DNA of 12,448 nt, from the IMG/VR virus record IMGVR_UViG_2648501165_000019; one strand, given 5' to 3'. This document shows, piece after piece, positions 1,462 to 8,477 of the stretch. The number at the start of each line of letters is the position of its first letter. The first letter of the stretch is position 1. A program made the position numbers and the translations under genes. The notes under the pieces are model-generated. The model made no database searches. It worked only from the letters and a program-made list of their open reading frames with translations, and had not been told where the DNA came from. The stretch comes from a virus. Taxonomy: Duplodnaviria; Heunggongvirae; Uroviricota; Caudoviricetes.

Positions 1462-1909
1462 ATATGTCCTTTTATCACCACAGCAAGGCAACCCATTGAT
1501 TTAATTAAACAACCCACACTGCAAAAAGTGCTAAAAACAGCAAATTGACTACACCATTAACTACACCGTTCGGTGCACTGTATGAAACAACGTGGAACAA
1601 ATAGACACAAGAAATATACAGGCGGGTAATCTTTCCNNNNNNNNNNNNNCCATAACGGGGCTACCGGATTTTTTTTCCGGTTAACTGTTAATCAGGCTGG
1701 TGGGTTTTACCTGTTCGGTAGGTGTTATGATTATCGTAATACCTTTCCCCCAGTGGGGTAAAAGCTCCAACCGTAACGATGTTCGTTGTGGTTGCCTTGA
1801 TGGTCTGCGTGGTCATTATGACCATTCAGAATATGAAGGGTGACGCTTCCGACTTCCTCAAATTGAGGTTTCCGAAAATATCAGCGGGTTAGCGATTAAT
1901 CTGACCATT

Positions 1910-1932
1910 AATTAAACTACGAAAATTTCGTA
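1910..1932 (+). repeat. 23-bp near-perfect palindrome between phoQ and the island, function unknown
   Basis: AAACTACGAAA-A-TTTCGTAGTTT. AT-rich with no flanking U-tract, so more likely a protein-binding dyad than a terminator. Confidence 0.4.
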
Positions 1933-2024
1933 GTTTGTGAATATATTCCGGCCTTCTGATTAACAGTCCTCAGATGTGAGGGATGTAGCCAGCGCAATTT
2001 TGCGTTATCGGGAATATCAGCAAG

Positions 2025-2306
2025 TTACCGCCGCAGCCGTTCCGGCTTCTTCCAGTGGTACGTTATTTTTTCTTTCTCCCGATACAGTTCAACGCGGCGA
2101 TTGTAGGCCAGCATTTCAAGAACGCGGTTCCGTATGTTGCGCATATCAACGCCATTAAGTTCTATACCATCACGGCGCATCACTTCCGCTACAACACGCA
2201 CATAATTTTCAGCGGTCACGCTGTCCGGCTGTGTGGCCTGTTCGTCATGCTGCTGGCTGATTCCGGCGACGCGGCGGATTAATCCCAGTAGTTCGGCTTC
2301 TGTCAT
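2025..2306 (-). CDS. Hypothetical protein (93 aa), last gene of the packaging module
   Basis: ATG at 2306-2304 preceded by a GGGGG Shine-Dalgarno-like run 4 nt upstream; same orientation as terS. No family recognised. Confidence 0.5.
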   Translation of the reverse strand: MTEAELLGLIRRVAGISQQHDEQATQPDSVTAENYVRVVAEVMRRDGIELNGVDMRNIRNRVLEMLAYNRRVELYREKEKITYHWKKPERLRR

Positions 2307-2340
2307 TGTGCCCCCATCGCTCTGATAGTCTGGTGTCGTC

Positions 2341-2545
2341 GGGTCCTTCCTGGAATTATGGCCCGTTACGGGGCGGCGACCTCGCGGTTTTTATCTGTTT
2401 ATGAGAATTTTCCGGCAAAAGTCAGATCCGATCTTCTTCTCTGTAACAGACTGTTTAACAATGAAAATATTAAAAAAAAGAAAGGATCTGACACGAGGCA
2501 TTTTAGCCAGAAAATGCCATTATCAGATCCTTTCTCATTTTTGTT
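2341..2545 (+). other. cos site copy A: complete lambda-type cos with cosQ-like, cosN and cosB-like R3/R2/R1 elements
   Basis: 2341-2370 GGGTCCTTCCTGGAATTATGGCCCGTTACG resembles the lambda right end (GGGTCCTTTCCGGTGATCCGACAGGTTACG). 2371-2382 GGGCGGCGACCT is identical to the lambda 12-nt cohesive end. 2383-2420 CGCGGTTTTTATCTGTTTATGAGAATTTTCCGG parallels lambda CGCGGGTTTTCGCTATTTATGAAAATTTTCCGG. R-like repeats with a GATCC core in direct/inverted/direct order: 2423-2443, 2477-2498, 2524-2543. Inverted repeat GGCATTTTAGCCAGAAAATGCC at 2497-2518. Confidence 0.8.
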
Positions 2546-2562
2546 CAATAATTGCGCGTCTG

Positions 2563-3105
2563 TTACTCGCCTTTCTTCTGTAGCAACTTTTCCGGTACGT
2601 TTCCGGTTGTTTCTTTCAAGTAATCAGCCAGTATCTGTGGGAGGTTGTCGGCAACTCTGGCACTGGCATTACAGGCTTTAACCACTTCCCTTTTAAGCCT
2701 GTCCAGCATGGCGGGGGTAATCTGTGGGAAGCTCCTTTGCATAGTAAGCGGGAGGCTGTCCATGATTGATGAAATCTGACTCGCCAGCTTTGAAAGCGCG
2801 TACAGGCAAAACTCAGTATCAATCACGTCACCGCGATCGCGATCGTTTTTAAGTTCCTGCGCCTCTGCCTGTGCTGTCAGTAATCTGATCCTGACTCGTA
2901 AAAGTTCATCATCGTCAATCTCGCCTTTGTCGTTTATAAGCTGGCTAATTGCATTGTTAACCCTATTTTCTATCACGCTGGCAACATCATAAAACGCCTC
3001 ACGGCCTTTACGCTCAACGGGAGTTACTCCCCACTTGTCGAACGCTGTCGCACTTACACGGCAGCTTTTCGCCATGTTTTTTTTGTTCATCAGATGAGAT
3101 TTCAT
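2563..3105 (-). CDS. terS: Terminase small subunit, lambda Nu1-like (180 aa)
   Basis: Length and sequence parallel lambda Nu1 as recalled, for example RLLTAQAEAQELKNDRDRGDVIDTEFCLYALSKLASQISSIMDSLPLTMQRSFP versus lambda RLTRAQADAQELKNARDSAEVVETAFCTFVLSRIAGEIASILDGLPLSVQRRFP. Lies immediately downstream of cos copy B in the lambda cos-Nu1 arrangement. Start could be Met1 (3105) or Met6 (3090). Confidence 0.85.
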   Translation of the reverse strand: MKSHLMNKKNMAKSCRVSATAFDKWGVTPVERKGREAFYDVASVIENRVNNAISQLINDKGEIDDDELLRVRIRLLTAQAEAQELKNDRDRGDVIDTEFCLYALSKLASQISSIMDSLPLTMQRSFPQITPAMLDRLKREVVKACNASARVADNLPQILADYLKETTGNVPEKLLQKKGE

Positions 3106-3257
3106 TAATACACCAACTTAATTACTGCTTCAGGTTGGTGTATTGCTTGCATCTTTCCCTTTTCATTCATAAAGATAGATCAAACAACAAAACCACCACC
3201 CTGAAAAGGCTCATAAATAGCGAAAATCCGCGAGGTCGCCGCCCCGTAACGGGCCAT
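3106..3257 (-). other. cos site copy B (inverted relative to copy A): cosN plus a short, diverged cosB directly upstream of terS
   Basis: 3228-3257 is the exact reverse complement of 2358-2387 (30/30, ATGGCCCGTTACGGGGCGGCGACCTCGCGG); cosN on the minus strand is 3244-3233. Minus-strand continuation ATTTTCGCTATTTATGAG matches the lambda post-cosN sequence. Further toward terS the lambda-like R elements are replaced by GGTGGTGG (3200-3193), CACCAACC (3140-3133) and GTTGGTG (3117-3111). The position where cosQ would lie is occupied by N10 (3258-3267) and a terminator. Confidence 0.75.
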
Positions 3258-3267
3258 NNNNNNNNNN

Positions 3268-3290
3268 TAAAAAAGCCGGATTTCTCCGGC
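3268..3290 (-). terminator. Rho-independent terminator, copy 1 of a conserved hairpin family
   Basis: Minus strand reads GCCGGAGAAATCCGGC followed by TTTTTT: 6-bp GC-rich stem, GAAA loop, U-tract. Sits 7 nt after the stop of the 137-aa gene. Confidence 0.7.
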
Positions 3291-3296
3291 CTTGTC

Positions 3297-3710
3297 TCAG
3301 ATGGTTTTCAGTATGCGATCGATGTCGCCGTCATCGCCCTGGTTTCTGCCATCGTATGCCATGCCAGCTGATACGGCTTGCGGGCTGTGCATGTCCATAA
3401 AGTTTTCAAAGGCTGCGGTAAGTTCCGGCGCAACCTTCGGACGTTCCTGCTCTATGGTCATGCTAAGGATGCTTTTAGCCGTACCAACATCGATACAAGG
3501 CACGTTTGCCATTGCACGCAACAGCGGCTGATAGTCTTTATGCTCATGAAGCGCCATAATCGCATCAGCGCGCGGCTTGTCCTGCTCTTCCAGTTTGTTT
3601 AGTTGATATACGGCCTCATAGGTTGATAAACCTCTGTCAGCCATTGCCCGCGCTTCGACTTTAAATTTACTCGCCAGCGGTAGCGTCATGATGCTTTCAT
3701 TCGTTGCCAT
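3297..3710 (-). CDS. Hypothetical protein (137 aa) downstream of the decoration gene
   Basis: ATG at 3710-3708 with GGGGG Shine-Dalgarno-like run 4 nt upstream; acidic C-terminal region. No family recognised. Confidence 0.6.
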   Translation of the reverse strand: MATNESIMTLPLASKFKVEARAMADRGLSTYEAVYQLNKLEEQDKPRADAIMALHEHKDYQPLLRAMANVPCIDVGTAKSILSMTIEQERPKVAPELTAAFENFMDMHSPQAVSAGMAYDGRNQGDDGDIDRILKTI

Positions 3711-3722
3711 CGTTCCCCCTGC

Positions 3723-4058
3723 TTATCGGGCCAGCGGCTGAACGGATACGCCGGAACCCGCAAAGGCGGCGCATTTTTTCGCATCGGTGTCGACGCTCTC
3801 AGGCCAGTTAACGGCGGCAATATTGAATATCCCCGTCTTGTAACACTGTGCTGATTTCTGCTTTGACGTGTCCACAGGGTACGAGGTCAGATAAACAGCC
3901 TTGCCAGATTCCTGACCATCCCACGGCTTAAACTCGCCATTGTCTGCCAGCATCAGCGGGGTAAATTCCTGAATAACGCCAGCATCAGCGGCAAAATGTA
4001 CCAACGTCGTGGATACCTGCTGACTGCCTGCAAATAACTCAATGTATGGAGTGTCCAT
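3723..4058 (-). CDS. Head decoration protein, lambda gpD-like (111 aa)
   Basis: TPLMLADNGEFKPWDG, YKTGIFNIAAVNWPE and KKCAAFAGSGVSV parallel lambda gpD TPLMLDTSSRKLVAWDG, YKSGTFRYEDVLWPE and KKRTAFAGTAISIV (recalled). GGGGGG Shine-Dalgarno-like run upstream; start lies 13 nt after the capsid gene stop. Confidence 0.8.
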   Translation of the reverse strand: MDTPYIELFAGSQQVSTTLVHFAADAGVIQEFTPLMLADNGEFKPWDGQESGKAVYLTSYPVDTSKQKSAQCYKTGIFNIAAVNWPESVDTDAKKCAAFAGSGVSVQPLAR

Positions 4059-4070
4059 AGAATCCCCCCG

Positions 4071-5126
4071 TTAACCAATTTTGACGGTAACAAATTTGCG
4101 AATATCTGCCGGTACCGGCTGCGGTGCACTGTGTGTCTGCACGTACTCAATCGCCGGATCGCCGTCCTCAATCCAGTTTTTCGGGTAAAACATGTTTTGT
4201 GTTGCGCCCGTTCTTACCGCTTCCTGATCCATTATCGCACCATAGGCCACCAGCCCTTTATTGTTGGTGTTACCCAGGACCAGCAAATCAGGCTCAAGGA
4301 AATATTTTTCGGTACCATCGCTGTCAGTGTATTTGCCGGAATAGACGATAAGGGCCAGATCACCAAGATAGCCTTTAAAGCTCACCACTTCGCCCAGGTT
4401 TTTACAGGCCAGTTCGGCGGCGGATTCTGAACCACGGGAAAGATCGTACAGCTCACGGAATTTTTTAAAGCTGCGTAATGTGCGCCATACCTCAGCGCCC
4501 ATAATCATGACGTTTGCGGGGCAACCAGCCTGATCAGCATAAAGCTCGATGTCATAGATTGGGTCGTGCATGTCTTTATCCTGCTCGGACCATTTTTTAC
4601 CCTTGGCCTGCTCTATGATGCAGTTTTCCGGTATTTTCCAGTCGATTTCATAGCGTTCTATGCCTTCGCCCTCAATGATGTTTTTTCCGGTCGTTACCGC
4701 ATTCACCGCCAGCCATTCCACGCGTGCCTTAATGGCGTTTATCTGGCGGCGCATGTTGCCAGTAATCAGGCGCATACGGCGATAGGTAGGGTCGTTAAGC
4801 TGTGCCGGATCTTCTCCAGCCATGCGCATGATGGTTTTCGTTGGATCGATTTCGTGCTTTGGCTTCATGTAGCCAGGTTTGATTGTGCTGGTTTCGTACC
4901 CTTTATCGCGCTGAACCTGGCTACCCACCATAGGCGAACAAAACGCCGACATGGTGACTTCTTCAATGTCCAGGGTATCCAGCATGATGTTTTGCGTGCT
5001 GAATGTCGCCACGTTCGGGAAAAACAGCGTGGTAAACAGAGGGCTGAATTTAAAATCCGCAATATCCCCGCGATTCAGGTACATGAAAAGCTGGTTAGTG
5101 TTAAGTGCCGTTGCTTTGCCTGCCAT
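4071..5126 (-). CDS. Major capsid protein, lambda gpE-like (351 aa)
   Basis: Colinear similarity to lambda gpE over the whole length (recalled): PGYMKPKHEIDP vs PGYVKPKHEVNP; DPAQLNDPTYRRMR vs DPQNLADPAYRRRR; FKGYLGDLALIVYSGKYTD vs YKGMYGDVAIVVYSGQYVE; LLVLGNTNNKGLVAYGAIMD vs TMVLGNTQARGLRTYGCIQD; YPKNWIEDGDPAIEY vs YPKNWVTTGDPAREF. Confidence 0.9.
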   Translation of the reverse strand: MAGKATALNTNQLFMYLNRGDIADFKFSPLFTTLFFPNVATFSTQNIMLDTLDIEEVTMSAFCSPMVGSQVQRDKGYETSTIKPGYMKPKHEIDPTKTIMRMAGEDPAQLNDPTYRRMRLITGNMRRQINAIKARVEWLAVNAVTTGKNIIEGEGIERYEIDWKIPENCIIEQAKGKKWSEQDKDMHDPIYDIELYADQAGCPANVMIMGAEVWRTLRSFKKFRELYDLSRGSESAAELACKNLGEVVSFKGYLGDLALIVYSGKYTDSDGTEKYFLEPDLLVLGNTNNKGLVAYGAIMDQEAVRTGATQNMFYPKNWIEDGDPAIEYVQTHSAPQPVPADIRKFVTVKIG

Positions 5127-5365
5127 TATTCACCCCCATAATTTTTATGCATCCCAAGCGCCGCAAGTAAATAAGAGCGTACAAGTGAACCTATCGACGG
5201 CTCCGGCGTCATCAGCGGATCCAGTCCAGCCGCAACGCCAGCTTCATAGTTTTTTTTGTGGCGCTGCTTGAGCACCTCCACGATTTCGGGGCTTATGTAC
5301 ACCGAAACACCGCCTTTTTTCTCTTCAGCCATAGTAAGAAATTCCTCTTCGACTAAAAAAATCAT
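5126..5365 (-). CDS. Small hypothetical protein translationally coupled to the capsid gene (79 aa, or 68 aa from an alternative ATG at 5332)
   Basis: Its stop TAA overlaps the capsid ATG (TAATG). Neither candidate start has a strong ribosome-binding site, so the start is uncertain. No family recognised. Confidence 0.45.
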   Translation of the reverse strand: MIFLVEEEFLTMAEEKKGGVSVYISPEIVEVLKQRHKKNYEAGVAAGLDPLMTPEPSIGSLVRSYLLAALGMHKNYGGE

Positions 5366-5541: not shown

Positions 5542-5563
5542 AAAAAAGCCGGATTGCTCCGGC
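5542..5563 (-). terminator. Rho-independent terminator, copy 2 of the conserved hairpin family
   Basis: Minus strand GCCGGAGCAATCCGGC followed by TTTTTT; lies after the 74-aa gene. Confidence 0.7.
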
Positions 5564-5583
5564 TATGTGTGCTGTGTGCTGGC

Positions 5584-5903: not shown

Positions 5904-5926
5904 CAAAAAAAGCCGGATTTCTCCGG
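5904..5926 (-). terminator. Rho-independent terminator, copy 3 of the conserved hairpin family
   Basis: Minus strand GCCGGAGAAATCCGGC followed by TTTTTTT; lies 9 nt after the stop of the PerC-like gene. Confidence 0.7.
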
Positions 5927-5934
5927 CTGTTTGA

Positions 5935-6207
5935 TTAGCTGTCCTGGTAATTGCGCCATATTTCATCACCAGCACCATCTATACCCATTTCGGCATAAGT
6001 GCGATCGACTGCCTTTTTCAGGTCTCCGAAATTATCCGGCGGCTCCGGTGCCCTCTGTGCCTTCCTTGAACATTCCAGCCGTCGCATCGTGATGTGATGC
6101 CGTTCCTTGTCTGTCTCCACCAGCTGCATGACTTCACCCCATCGCGCCGCCGCCCTCCGGTAAAAGCCTTTCGCCTCCAGTTCCTCCGCTATGCGGTCAT
6201 GTACCAT
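5935..6207 (-). CDS. Small putative transcriptional activator, PerC-like (90 aa from ATG at 6207)
   Basis: The longer frame to 6327 starts with GTG and overlaps the SSB gene. The ATG at 6207 follows the SSB stop with a GGGGGTG ribosome-binding site. Motif AEELEAKGFYRRAAARWGEVM resembles the signature I recall for PerC/Pch regulators; this is from memory and of moderate strength. Confidence 0.45.
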   Translation of the reverse strand: MVHDRIAEELEAKGFYRRAAARWGEVMQLVETDKERHHITMRRLECSRKAQRAPEPPDNFGDLKKAVDRTYAEMGIDGAGDEIWRNYQDS

Positions 6208-6217
6208 CGTCACCCCC

Positions 6218-6628
6218 TCAGAACGAAATATCATCACCGTAAGGGTCATCGCCTCCCGCTGGTGGCTGATTACCCTGTGTGCCTGTGGTTTTGCGTCTGT
6301 TCCCGCCTGGACGTGCCGCGCGGGCACTGATTACGCTGTCTGCGATAACCTGCCAGCCCTGCCGCGTTTCTCCGTTCTGTCCGGTCCACTGGCTTACCTG
6401 CATCGTGCCGGATACGCTGGCAACATCGCCTTTTTGATGTTTAGCCAGGAAGTCGGCCTGTTTGCCAAATGCGATGACCGATAACCATAACGTCGCCTGT
6501 CCGTCCTGTGCCTGGCTGCATGGCAAAGATACCGCCATACGCGCCAGCGTCATCGGTGTGCCCTTGCTGGTCTGTTTTACCTGCGGGTCGTCCACCAGCC
6601 GCCCGTAAGCGGCTATCTGTGCCGTCAT
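6218..6628 (-). CDS. Single-stranded DNA-binding protein (136 aa)
   Basis: OB-fold region parallels E. coli SSB (WLSVIAFGKQADFLAKHQKGDVASVSGTMQVSQWTGQNGETRQGWQVIA vs [50 protein letters not shown]). Gly/Pro-rich linker and acidic C-terminal tail DDPYGDDISF (E. coli SSB ends DDDIPF). ATGA start/stop overlap with the upstream gene. Confidence 0.85.
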   Translation of the reverse strand: MTAQIAAYGRLVDDPQVKQTSKGTPMTLARMAVSLPCSQAQDGQATLWLSVIAFGKQADFLAKHQKGDVASVSGTMQVSQWTGQNGETRQGWQVIADSVISARAARPGGNRRKTTGTQGNQPPAGGDDPYGDDISF

Positions 6629-6876
6629 AATTCCACCTCTCCGGTTTTAACGTTGATGGTTGTTACCTGTTCCGCTTCGGCAATCTCCCGTTCTGTCAGC
6701 GTGGCAAAGTTTGCCGCCGCCGTGGTCATGAATGCGCTTATCAGGTCGGGATGTTCCTTCGCGTATCCTTCCCGCGTGTGGCGGTCTATCGTTCTGATTG
6801 CCACCTTTAAGGTGTGCTCAGTCATGTCTAACGCTTTATATTTTGGCTCTGTTCTGTCTCTGCGTTTTTGGGTCAT
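6625..6876 (-). CDS. Hypothetical protein (83 aa from ATG at 6876)
   Basis: The ORF-track frame extends to 6906 but that start is GTG and lies inside the iteron array. The ATG at 6876 has a GAGG ribosome-binding site 9 nt upstream. Stop overlaps the SSB start (ATGA). Confidence 0.4.
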   Translation of the reverse strand: MTQKRRDRTEPKYKALDMTEHTLKVAIRTIDRHTREGYAKEHPDLISAFMTTAAANFATLTEREIAEAEQVTTINVKTGEVEL

Positions 6877-6885
6877 TTCTCGCAA

Positions 6886-7078
6886 CCTCTCACTTTTTCG
6901 CCTCACTTTTTCAAGCGTCTCACTTCGTCGCAGTTGGGATTTTCGGTTTTTCTATGTGTGTGTTTCATAAGTATTTTTTTACCCCTCACTTTTGAGGATG
7001 TATACAGGTCGAAAAGTGAGGGAGAGCGGGCTAATTTTGGCCCTCTTTCTATCCCCCTCGCTTTTGCTCCTCACTTTT
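6886..7078 (-). repeat. Iteron array, putative replication origin, immediately 3' of the helicase gene
   Basis: Seven copies of a CCTCACTTTT-type decamer: 6889-6897, 6901-6910, 6918-6927, 6984-6993, 7056-7065, 7069-7078, plus one inverted copy at 7011-7024. AT-rich spacer around 6961-6981. Confidence 0.6.
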
Positions 7079-8477
7079 ATAGCGGCGCTACATCATCCCC
7101 ATCGATACGAATAACCCCATCTTTTTCCAGCTTGTACAGCCAGCGCCGGAAGTTTTTCATTTCATACCCCAGCTTTTTCATGTCATCACGTAACAGCGGG
7201 ATCGTGCACTTGTCGCCGTTCTGTGTGCGTGAACGGATGCCCCCCCATAGCGCGGTATGGTTTTTCGTCTTGTTCCCTGCCTCCTCGATGCGCTCCAGTT
7301 CAACAGGAGGGCGCGGATCATCCACCACCACCAGCGACGTGATTAATTCACCGTCAGCGTCGGTAAAAAGCTCCACCACGCGTAAGTCATATGCGGCTTC
7401 TTTGAGTTCCTCCGCGTCCTTCATTTTGGTGCATGAGATAACCAGCGCTTCGCTTCCTGCGTCCTCCCTGCGTATCCGGTATTCAGCATCCAGCGAAGCA
7501 CGAAATGCACTGGAACCGCGCGCGCCTTTCGTCTCATCCTTGCCGGAATGGTGAACCACCAGCACCGTGGCCCCTGTGCGTCGTTTCAGTTCGTCACAAC
7601 CACGGATAAACGCCCCCATATCACGGGAATCATTTTCATCATTCCCACCAAAGCAACGCGCCAGCGTATCCAGAATAATCATGCGTACAGGTTTACCCGT
7701 TTCCCGCTCCACCTGACGGGCAGCGATAACCATTTCATCAACATCAAGCGGGGCAGCCGGAAAGATGGGGCGGTTTACCAGATACAGATTTTTCACCTGC
7801 TCATCGTGCACAACCTCCCAGGCTTTTACACGACGCGGAACACCTATACCGCCTTCACCAACCACATAGAGAACCGCACCATGTGCAACCCTGCGGCCTC
7901 CCCACTGGCGACCAGTGGCAACATGGCACGCCCACGATCCGGCAAGGAATGATTTATAGGACCCGCTAGCCCCGTATATGCTGCATAGCGATACCGCCGG
8001 AATAATCCCCTTAACCACGTAATCCAGTTGCGTGTCGTATCCGGTAGATCCAACGCTCATCGGTAGCGTGGTTTTTCGCTGGTGGTTTTTTTCTTCCGCC
8101 GGCTCTTTCCCGCGCACCCGTTCCAGGTATTCGCGCCAGTTCTCCCGCATATGGCTGTGCATCCCTTCGGGGTAATAATTCGCATCAGTTACACCCGCCG
8201 CCGCCAGCTTGTGCGCAATGGCATTAATATTTGATGGCCTGATGTGGCCTGCCTTGTACAGCCGGACACAATAGCGCCCCTCGTCGATGATTCTCAGGTC
8301 TGCCAGTTCATCCAGTTGATCATCAGCCAGCACAACGGGAGGCACATTATCGCCAGCCAGTCGCCCGTCCTGTTCCTGCCACTGTTTCGCATGTGCCCAG
8401 GCATCACTACCCGCAAAAATAATGACTTCGGTCATCTTGTCGTAAGGCTGTTTTTTTAAGTTCGGTGCGCTTTTCAT
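7077..8477 (-). CDS. Replication protein with RecA-like (RepA/DnaB-type) ATPase domain, putative helicase/initiator (466 aa)
   Basis: Walker A GASGSYKS (aa 169-176), Walker B-like MIILDTLARCFGGNDEND, and VLVVHHSGK motif typical of RepA-like replicative ATPases. N-terminal region of about 160 aa unassigned. AGGGG ribosome-binding site 6 nt upstream; ATGA overlap with the upstream gene. Confidence 0.7.
   Translation of the reverse strand: MKSAPNLKKQPYDKMTEVIIFAGSDAWAHAKQWQEQDGRLAGDNVPPVVLADDQLDELADLRIIDEGRYCVRLYKAGHIRPSNINAIAHKLAAAGVTDANYYPEGMHSHMRENWREYLERVRGKEPAEEKNHQRKTTLPMSVGSTGYDTQLDYVVKGIIPAVSLCSIYGASGSYKSFLAGSWACHVATGRQWGGRRVAHGAVLYVVGEGGIGVPRRVKAWEVVHDEQVKNLYLVNRPIFPAAPLDVDEMVIAARQVERETGKPVRMIILDTLARCFGGNDENDSRDMGAFIRGCDELKRRTGATVLVVHHSGKDETKGARGSSAFRASLDAEYRIRREDAGSEALVISCTKMKDAEELKEAAYDLRVVELFTDADGELITSLVVVDDPRPPVELERIEEAGNKTKNHTALWGGIRSRTQNGDKCTIPLLRDDMKKLGYEMKNFRRWLYKLEKDGVIRIDGDDVAPL

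Follow-up and report, generated by a model that had tools for sequence, protein, structure and literature searches.

Results

A Small-Terminase Gene Lies between Two Inverted cos Sites

The DNA analysed here (the window) is the whole 12,448-nucleotide IMG/VR virus record IMGVR_UViG_2648501165_000019, in which a gene for a phage-type small terminase, terS (2563..3105, minus strand), is bracketed by two inverted cos sites. The plus-strand site, at the 3′ end of terS, is referred to as copy A and the minus-strand site, upstream of its start, as copy B. An earlier note, made from the letters of this DNA, had placed an inverted repeat at 2358-2387 and 3228-3257; the coordinates are correct, and the repeat is longer than it had appeared. 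A repeat scan of the window gave arms at 2358-2415 and 3200-3257, 58 nt long and 88% complementary, with perfect identity over the outermost 30 nt of both. No other inverted repeat in the window comes close in length, the runner-up being 27 nt at 81%. The 12-nt cohesive end of phage lambda, cosN (GGGCGGCGACCT), has exactly two matches, at 2371-2382 (plus strand) in copy A and 3233-3244 (minus strand) in copy B, so that both sites carry an exact lambda-type cosN. The chance expectation is ∼0.04 in the window, and two matches were found in 0 of 200 shuffles.

Both copies, which are lambda-type cos sites as had been proposed, carry the cosQ element (GGGTCCT) ∼20–30 bp from cosN, upstream of it and opposite to cosB. 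In copy A it lies at 2341-2347 (plus strand). In copy B (minus strand) it is concealed by a run of 10 N at 3258-3267, which in complete genomes is 18 nt of real sequence (AATTCCAGGAAGGACCCG). Since 2340-2357 read on the minus strand gives AATTCCAGGAAGGACCCG, the perfect repeat extends to 48 nt and each arm to ∼76 nt, and a cosQ is present in copy B too. The arm of copy A thus occupies 2340..2415 (plus strand, from the inverted repeat and the lambda cos alignment) and that of copy B 3200..3267 (minus strand, from the inverted repeat and the complete-genome sequence). The sites are 0.86 kb apart, and the cassette bounded by the cosQ-cosN arms is ∼0.94 kb.

The sequence beneath the N runs was obtained from the complete genomes of CB9615 and OkiPb01711. 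The runs do not preserve length: the other one, 13 N at 1638-1650, stands for 51 nt. The run beside copy B adjoins the inverted repeat, as expected for a short-read assembly breaking at a 48-bp perfect repeat. The paired arrangement was found in 386 complete E. coli genomes, counted as a match covering at least 80% of window positions 1500-3600. Because the same layout recurs in all of these, the architecture is not a misjoin at the N runs, and the paired inverted cos sites are real; the orientation given here for the 0.84-kb interior is that of the scaffolded assembly alone.

The Two Copies Differ in cosB

Copy A resembles the cos site of a phage. Its arm holds the conserved TTTATGA..TTTTCC block and is followed by a cosB of lambda-like layout (2421..2542, plus strand), in which a repeat scan and alignment located R3 (GTCAGATCCGATCTTCTT, 2421-2438), R2 (AAAAAGAAAGGATCTGAC, 2475-2492), and R1 (2523-2542), all on the plus strand, with an A/T-rich, I1-like spacer between R3 and R2. 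In a lambda-type cosB, R3 binds TerS and I1 is an IHF site. Alignment with the cos regions of lambda and of the lambdoid phage SerU-LTIIb, as the earlier note had suggested, is collinear throughout, in the order cosQ, cosN, TTTATGA..TTTTCC block, R3, I1-like spacer, R2, and R1. The description of copy A as having an upstream cosQ and a full lambda-like cosB therefore holds for the layout but not for the R elements themselves, which are of the type CAGATCC/GGATCTG, whereas the lambda counterparts are GTTTCC/GGAAAC. Near-identical R3, R2, and R1 elements are present in SerU-LTIIb immediately upstream of its own terS, and SerU-type cos sites were found in 38–43 complete E. coli genomes, within ordinary lambda-like head modules beside terS-terL of complete prophages. 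As judged from these alignments, copy A is a complete phage-style cos with the R elements of SerU-LTIIb-like lambdoid prophages.

As had been noticed, copy A abuts the 3′ end of terS. The two meet head-on, and no Nu1 gene follows copy A. On the minus strand, which is the sense of terS, R2-R1 together with a U8 tract folds into a terminator-like hairpin (−39 kcal/mol, z = −6.4), which may serve as the terS terminator besides, or instead of, its function in cosB. Scanning the cassette for promoter and terminator consensus sequences gave nothing informative. A scan of IMG/VR for the exact R2 16-mer returned 57 matches, none of which was a non-island phage contig with the copy A cosB; 32 of the 57 lack the partner R elements and look like chance.

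Copy B, by comparison, stands in the usual cos-then-terS arrangement, in agreement with the earlier reading, and shares with copy A only cosQ, cosN, and the TTTATGA block. In place of the full R3-I1-R2-R1 layout, its cosB (3108..3199, minus strand), which appears satellite-specific from alignment with lambda and N15 and from comparison within the family, consists of an N15-like R3 region (GGTTTTGTTGTTTGATC, 3178-3194, minus strand, from the alignment with N15) and a different inverted repeat (ACACCAAC/GTTGGTGT, 3110-3117 and 3134-3141, minus strand) directly upstream of the terS start. A (GGT)n/G-run tract (∼3195-3203, minus strand) separates cosN from the R3-like region. The length of this tract differs among the islands compared, including the locus L002 and many other IMG/VR loci, and in CB9615 it is 6 nt longer; the cosN-to-R3 spacing is thus altered. 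This spacing has been reported to be critical in lambda.

The Window Belongs to the EcCICFT073 Family of Islands

In complete genomes, the island of the window is integrated between phoQ and roxA. Its genes are arranged in the order integrase, AlpA-like helix-turn-helix protein, Icd-like protein, RepA helicase, SSB, PerC, capsid E-like protein, decoration D-like protein, p137, terS, and p93. EcCICFT073, the island of E. coli strain CFT073, is a model Gram-negative phage-inducible chromosomal island (PICI). It has the same phoQ-roxA site and the same gene order, and two inverted cosN sites in ∼77-nt lambda-type cosQ-cosN arms surround its packaging-specificity gene, the 144-aa rppA. The flanks of the two islands are 90%–96% identical up to the arms, and their interiors are unrelated. 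By integration site, gene set, and paired inverted cos sites, the window is a PICI of the EcCICFT073 family, one in which the gene between the sites does not encode an Rpp.

The earlier note had known of no established reason for a cos-packaged genome to carry two inverted cos sites. Such paired sites have a precedent: cos1 and cos2 of EcCICFT073 were described and tested by Fillol-Salom et al. in 2018 (PMC6092414) and 2019 (PMC6739421) and have since been reviewed (Murialdo and Feiss, 2022; PMC9026076). Each site was functional when cloned; for transfer by lambda and phi80, deletion of cos1 lowered transfer and deletion of both sites abolished it (PMC6092414). The cosB of cos1 is recognised by an RppA-TerS heterodimer, and the sequences in Fig. 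S1A identify cos1 as the rpp-proximal and cos2 as the distal site (PMC6739421). By position, copy B is therefore the counterpart of cos1, and copy A that of cos2. The data on terminase cleavage and packaging are those for the homologous EcCICFT073 sites (PMC6092414, PMC6739421). Why some islands have two cos sites was posed as a question by the authors who discovered the islands. PICIs that encode a TerS have also been catalogued: EcCIIHE3034 and EcCI18098 were listed in 2018 and, as they gave no transfer, were not characterised, and their cos sites are absent from the main-text description (PMC6092414). EcCIIHE3034 is the same type of island with the same neighbour genes, and its TerS (WP_000835278.1) is 98% identical to that of the window, but it is integrated at cspD-clpS. 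The paired cos sites of the window are thus, by homology, the published cos1/cos2 feature in a member of the catalogued TerS type. Full-text literature searches found no paper on inversion of a PICI cos cassette; the words “inverted” and “orientation” are absent from the 2018 main text (PMC6092414), and “inverted” is absent from that of the 2019 paper (PMC6739421).

A Full-Length Small Terminase Replaces RppA

The 180-aa product of terS, which takes the place of RppA, had been proposed to be a small terminase, and Pfam, PHROG, and phage-protein comparisons agree in identifying a protein of the Nu1/N15 gp1 type. It matches the Nu1 family PF07471 (3e-23, 82.6 bits against a cut-off of 30) and, over residues 1-174, phrog_57 (8e-53). 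Its best phage relative is gp1 of N15, with 44% identity over 90% of the length. On these matches the protein is full length, from the winged-helix domain at the N terminus through the C-terminal half of the Nu1 family. The possibility that the 180-aa protein is itself an Rpp was considered and rejected: it has no BLASTP similarity to RppA, and sequence searches of the PDB found no relative of TerS (nor of p93 or p137), whereas RppA finds RppC (6hlk, 5e-31).

Island TerS proteins are mosaic, combining a DNA-binding domain of either the N15 type or the lambda/21 type with a conserved C-terminal half. The latter contains a 12-aa insertion, ETTGNVPEKLxQ, which is absent from lambda Nu1 and N15 gp1. 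The region of the insertion lies at 2563-2620 in the window, occurs also in loci L013, L053, and L095, and corresponds to the TerL-binding end of Nu1. Relatives with a single cos site have a different TerS C terminus (..NVPEKLQPNKDK).

Co-variation of the Proximal cosB and the DNA-Binding Domain of TerS

Among the loci examined, the N15-type TerS domain is always accompanied by a GGTTTTGTTGTT..ACACCAAC (GTTGTT/ACACCAAC) proximal cosB and the lambda/21-type domain always by a CATGTCGG proximal cosB, with no exceptions. In one locus of this set, L013, the proximal cosB matches that of phage 21. At the level of sequence comparison, copy B, its cosB, and terS are thereby shown to form one unit, in which cosB co-varies with the DNA-binding domain of TerS. 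One distal cosB occurs with both domain types, from which it follows that the distal cosB is not matched to the island TerS.

To census the layout without bias, 80 IMG/VR loci were sampled through the TerS protein, of which 73 could be evaluated. A full distal cos-like arm is present downstream of terS in 37, a remnant in 10, no distal arm in 24, and another arrangement in two. In nine of the 10 remnants, the terS stop codon runs straight into an outer half-arm that breaks off within cosN. The paired layout is thus common and ancient, but islands can do without it. A scan of species-representative genomes with p137 found no relative, and for this reason the cross-species census relies on IMG/VR. 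The fusions (L112-L116 and L118-L121, ..GGGGCGGCG|GTTA) represent natural losses of the second cos by deletion, in which one breakpoint falls within the nicking site. In one relative with an identical TerS (L037/L073), foreign DNA takes the place of the distal arm and of R3 directly after R2-R1, leaving only the hairpin; that the foreign DNA is an insertion sequence is a guess.

Some relatives have different sequences at the cosN position of the two arms (L049, L053, L023, L135, and L142, among others). Such heterotypic pairs combine, for example, a lambda-type proximal arm with a SerU-like distal one (GGGGGTAGCCATACGCGC), and GGGCGGCAGACG also occurs with other types. When a phage search was made with the alternative, type 2 cos arm, only its phage-21-like cosB part was matched and not the cosN-position sequence, so that support for the latter comes only from SerU-LTIIb-type prophages. 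In EcCICFT073, the inner block of cos2 is a near-exact match to the cos of the natural helper, CFT073 prophage 4, and its repeats CATGTCCGG/CCGGACATG differ by one base from the phage-21-type R elements of that prophage.

The Cassette Is Inverted and Exchanged at the Arms

The earlier note had also suggested that the segment might be invertible by recombination between the repeats. A synthetic junction mimicking a flipped cassette was searched in complete genomes, and the flipped terS-type cassette was found, as a single end-to-end match, in five, compared with 386 in the native orientation. In PM4-5 and 2014C-4587, terS is on the strand opposite to the capsid genes, p137, and p93. At the flipped loci, the entire arm-to-arm interior aligns in reverse and both flanks align forward, the orientation of p93 and p137 being unchanged. 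TUM1886 and PM4-5 carry the same TerS accession in opposite orientations, with interiors 98.2% identical and flanks 93% and 87% identical. The rppA-type cassette is flipped in 25 genomes and in the CFT073 orientation in 64; WP4-S17-ESBL-08, for example, has the same phoQ site and an identical RppA on the opposite strand, with a reversed interior that is 99.4% identical.

Comparison of the arms showed the outer halves to be tied to the flanks and the inner halves to move with the cassette, which places the exchange within ∼27 bp that include cosN. The same boundaries apply to replacement: between CFT073 and the window, rpp has been exchanged for terS exactly at the arms, and cassettes are more alike than their flanks. 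In the genomes compared, the arms are thus shown to be the boundaries of natural cassette inversion and replacement. In some islands, including the window, the outer arm halves are identical, which implies that the arms have undergone gene conversion and speaks for ordinary homologous recombination.

The idea of an invertible segment consequently stands on an evolutionary scale, and a fast switch is unlikely. None of 80 IMG/VR relatives is flipped, and the assemblies of each strain, four for CFT073 and many for Nissle 1917 and ATCC 25922, share one orientation. The 25 flipped rppA-type genomes probably descend from one inherited event, because their scores are identical. No invertase is present in or beside the cassette, which holds terS only; the sole recombinase of the island is the integrase, ∼8 kb away. 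Inversion looks to be a rare event.

Neighbouring Genes and Other Features

On the copy A side, the cassette is flanked by p93 (2025..2306, minus strand), a conserved 93-aa gene of phrog_1561 (unknown function), and on the copy B side by p137 (3297..3710, minus strand), a conserved 137-aa gene, which is the last of a capsid-like operon. The C terminus of p137 is similar to the one found in a head maturation protease (scaffold or Nu3-like). The operon includes genes for a D-like decoration protein (3723-4058) and an E-like major capsid protein (4071-5126); across 3297-5365 the capsid-related genes are in an unusual order, and the island has neither a portal nor a large terminase gene. A PerC-family transcriptional activator is encoded at 5935-6327 (PF06069, 1e-42). 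PerC/Pch proteins control virulence loci in pathogenic E. coli.

Two families of short repeats were also observed. The 17-nt motif TTTTNCNCCTCACTTTT is present in three copies within 6867-7078, at intervals of 83–85 nt. In the sense of its transcription, the RepA-helicase gene (7077-8477) lies before the copies, which are just inside the 5′ end of the next minus-strand open reading frame (6625-6906); the copies may be iterons of a replication origin. A 28-nt hairpin-forming motif (AAAAAAGCCGGATTTCTCCGGC..) follows three minus-strand genes, at 3269-3296, 5542-5569, and 5906-5933, and looks like a family of intrinsic terminators.

Discussion

A Proposed Pairing of a Satellite-Specific and a Phage-Type cos in One Module

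The reading that we favour, with a probability of roughly 0.6, is that the island combines one satellite-specific cos (copy B) with one phage-type cos (copy A), and that, owing to its inverted arms, the module can be inverted, exchanged, and lost. We infer this functional split between the copies from comparison of sequences. The island TerS would bind the cosB of copy B, as the co-variation of the two suggests, and its Nu1-like C-terminal half would recruit the large terminase of a helper to cut the copy B cosN, after which concatemeric island DNA would be packaged from copy B toward terS. Copy A would provide an independent second entry for a helper terminase of another specificity, with packaging in the opposite direction, and probably broadens the helper range or serves as a backup; its R2-R1 hairpin would additionally end terS transcription. 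Recombination between the arms, or a double cut followed by rejoining, would flip or swap the module and destroy neither cos, since the two arms are inverted copies with cosN at the centre. Among the four possibilities raised in the earlier note, the comparisons, including the unlike cosN-position sequences in the two arms of several relatives, best support one site for the helper terminase and one for the satellite TerS, and packaging in either direction agrees with the published function of both EcCICFT073 sites (PMC6092414).

The predicted mechanism differs from that of EcCICFT073, in which RppA, lacking the C-terminal TerL-binding region that is absent from Rpp proteins (PMC9026076), acts as an Rpp-TerS heterodimer; in the window, TerL would be recruited directly. 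Both cosB regions also differ from those of EcCICFT073, the proximal one being N15-like and the distal one SerU-LTIIb-like. With lambda, the window shares an identical cosN in both copies and, in copy A, collinearity from cosQ to R1; lambda, however, has one cos followed by Nu1, whereas the window has two in inverted orientation, with R elements of the CAGATCC rather than the GTTTCC type in copy A. In N15, cosB is reduced to an R3 equivalent, and a GTTGTTGTTT-type sequence like that at the N15 R3 position is found in copy B, but the N15 cosN is GGGCGGCGTCCG rather than lambda-type, and N15 gp1 lacks the 12-aa insertion of the island TerS. A further satellite, the staphylococcal island SaPIbov4, has HNH-dependent cos phages as helpers. 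Two putative cos sites have been mentioned for it (PMC6092414), a likeness by description only, as both its sequence and its helpers are unrelated.

Several observations weigh against the favoured reading. Deletion of cos2 raised the transfer of EcCICFT073 by lambda and phi80, and the TerS-type island EcCIIHE3034 gave no transfer in the same study (PMC6092414). Searches of phages and prophages found none that pairs a lambda-type cosN with a CAGATCC-type cosB; copy A of this island may therefore lack a cognate helper, and the case for the functional split is correspondingly weaker for the window. Prophages of the SerU type are scarce (38–43 of 5426 genomes), and R2-R1 of copy A could merely be the terS terminator. 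The second cos is dispensable, being absent from 24 and reduced to a truncated remnant in 10 of the 73 loci of the unbiased sample. In the first census, terS or rppA lay between two inverted arms in 30 of 31 loci; the IMG/VR loci of that census had been selected by the distal R2 16-mer, and it was hence biased. The alternative cosN-position sequences, finally, are identified as cos by their position and their resemblance to SerU-type prophages only.

Alternative Explanations

Alternatively, copy A, like cos2, would be a scar left by the recombination that imported phage cos-terS or cos-rpp modules, with no specific helper of its own. Its cosQ-cosN would then be tolerated, allowing weak, cosB-independent packaging, and the hairpin would be kept solely as the terS terminator, which it resembles with its U8 tract. 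The frequent loss of the distal site, in part by truncation inside cosN, the rise in transfer upon cos2 deletion, the poor function of cloned PICI cos sites with lambda and phi80 (PMC6092414), and the lack of a phage with the copy A combination of cosN and cosB all point in this direction. A scar is difficult to reconcile, on the other hand, with a complete, well-spaced cosQ-cosN-R3-I1-R2-R1 array kept in many diverged islands with various cosN types and with either rpp or terS as cargo, or with distal cosN-position sequences that differ from the proximal ones but match real prophages (SerU type). Moreover, transfer of EcCICFT073 was abolished only by the double deletion (PMC6092414). On balance, we consider a leftover site possible but rather unlikely. 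An artefact of assembly at the N runs, which the earlier note had entertained, has next to no probability. An N run does abut copy B, and short-read assemblies can fail at a perfect inverted repeat of 48 bp, but complete genomes, CB9615 and OkiPb01711 among the 386, supply the missing sequence and rule out an artefact for the architecture, and the homologous CFT073 pair has been verified experimentally (PMC6092414).

The occurrence of both orientations in nature, with breakpoints in the arms, might instead reflect a programmed switch, by which phase variation would set the expression of terS or rpp (co-directional with or antisense to the capsid operon) or the direction of packaging. Near-identical EcCICFT073-type islands at the phoQ site do differ in orientation only. 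The likeness to Hin/Gin/Cin and the shufflons, where a gene-bearing segment between inverted repeats is likewise found in both orientations, ends with the dedicated invertase of those systems: the window has none, its repeats are cos sites, and inversion is apparently rare. The constant orientation among assemblies of CFT073, Nissle 1917, and ATCC 25922, the figures of 0 of 80 and 5 against 386, and the identical scores of the 25 flipped rppA-type genomes, which suggest one inherited event, likewise speak against a switch, and we regard it as very improbable. A different possible source of rearrangement follows from the geometry of lambda cos, by which cuts at two inverted cosN sites leave an interior with two identical cohesive ends, so that it could be rejoined in either orientation. 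The helper terminase might thus shuffle a “cos-bounded cassette,” cutting both cosN sites, with the fragment rejoined either way or swapped between co-replicating satellites or phages. Both ends of the fragment would have the same 12-nt overhang, and the flank ends would be identical to each other and complementary to the fragment. The ∼27-bp exchange interval, the greater similarity of cassettes than of flanks, and the rpp-terS swap at the arms are consistent with such a process, but ordinary homologous recombination in the same identical stretch accounts for them equally well, and we offer terminase shuffling only as a speculation with a small chance of being correct. If true, it would amount to a natural restriction and ligation that diversifies cosB, TerS, and Rpp specificities and with them the helper range.

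Implications for PICI Mobilisation

What was already known is the paired cos1/cos2 layout of EcCICFT073 and the existence of TerS-encoding PICIs. To this the present analysis adds that the type of the proximal cosB changes in step with that of the DNA-binding domain of TerS; that the distal cos appears to be a complete phage-type site with R elements matching SerU-LTIIb-like prophages; that some relatives have unlike cosN-position sequences in their two arms; and that the arm-bounded cassette has been flipped or replaced in nature, the second cos often being lost. By hijacking phage packaging, PICIs spread virulence and defence genes at high frequency, and the cos sites of an island, together with its TerS or Rpp, determine which helper phages are able to mobilise it. 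The window represents an uncharacterised class of cos-type PICI, in which a full-length TerS with a distinctive C terminus stands in the place of Rpp; the mechanism by which these islands hijack packaging would therefore be unlike the published Rpp-TerS heterodimer.

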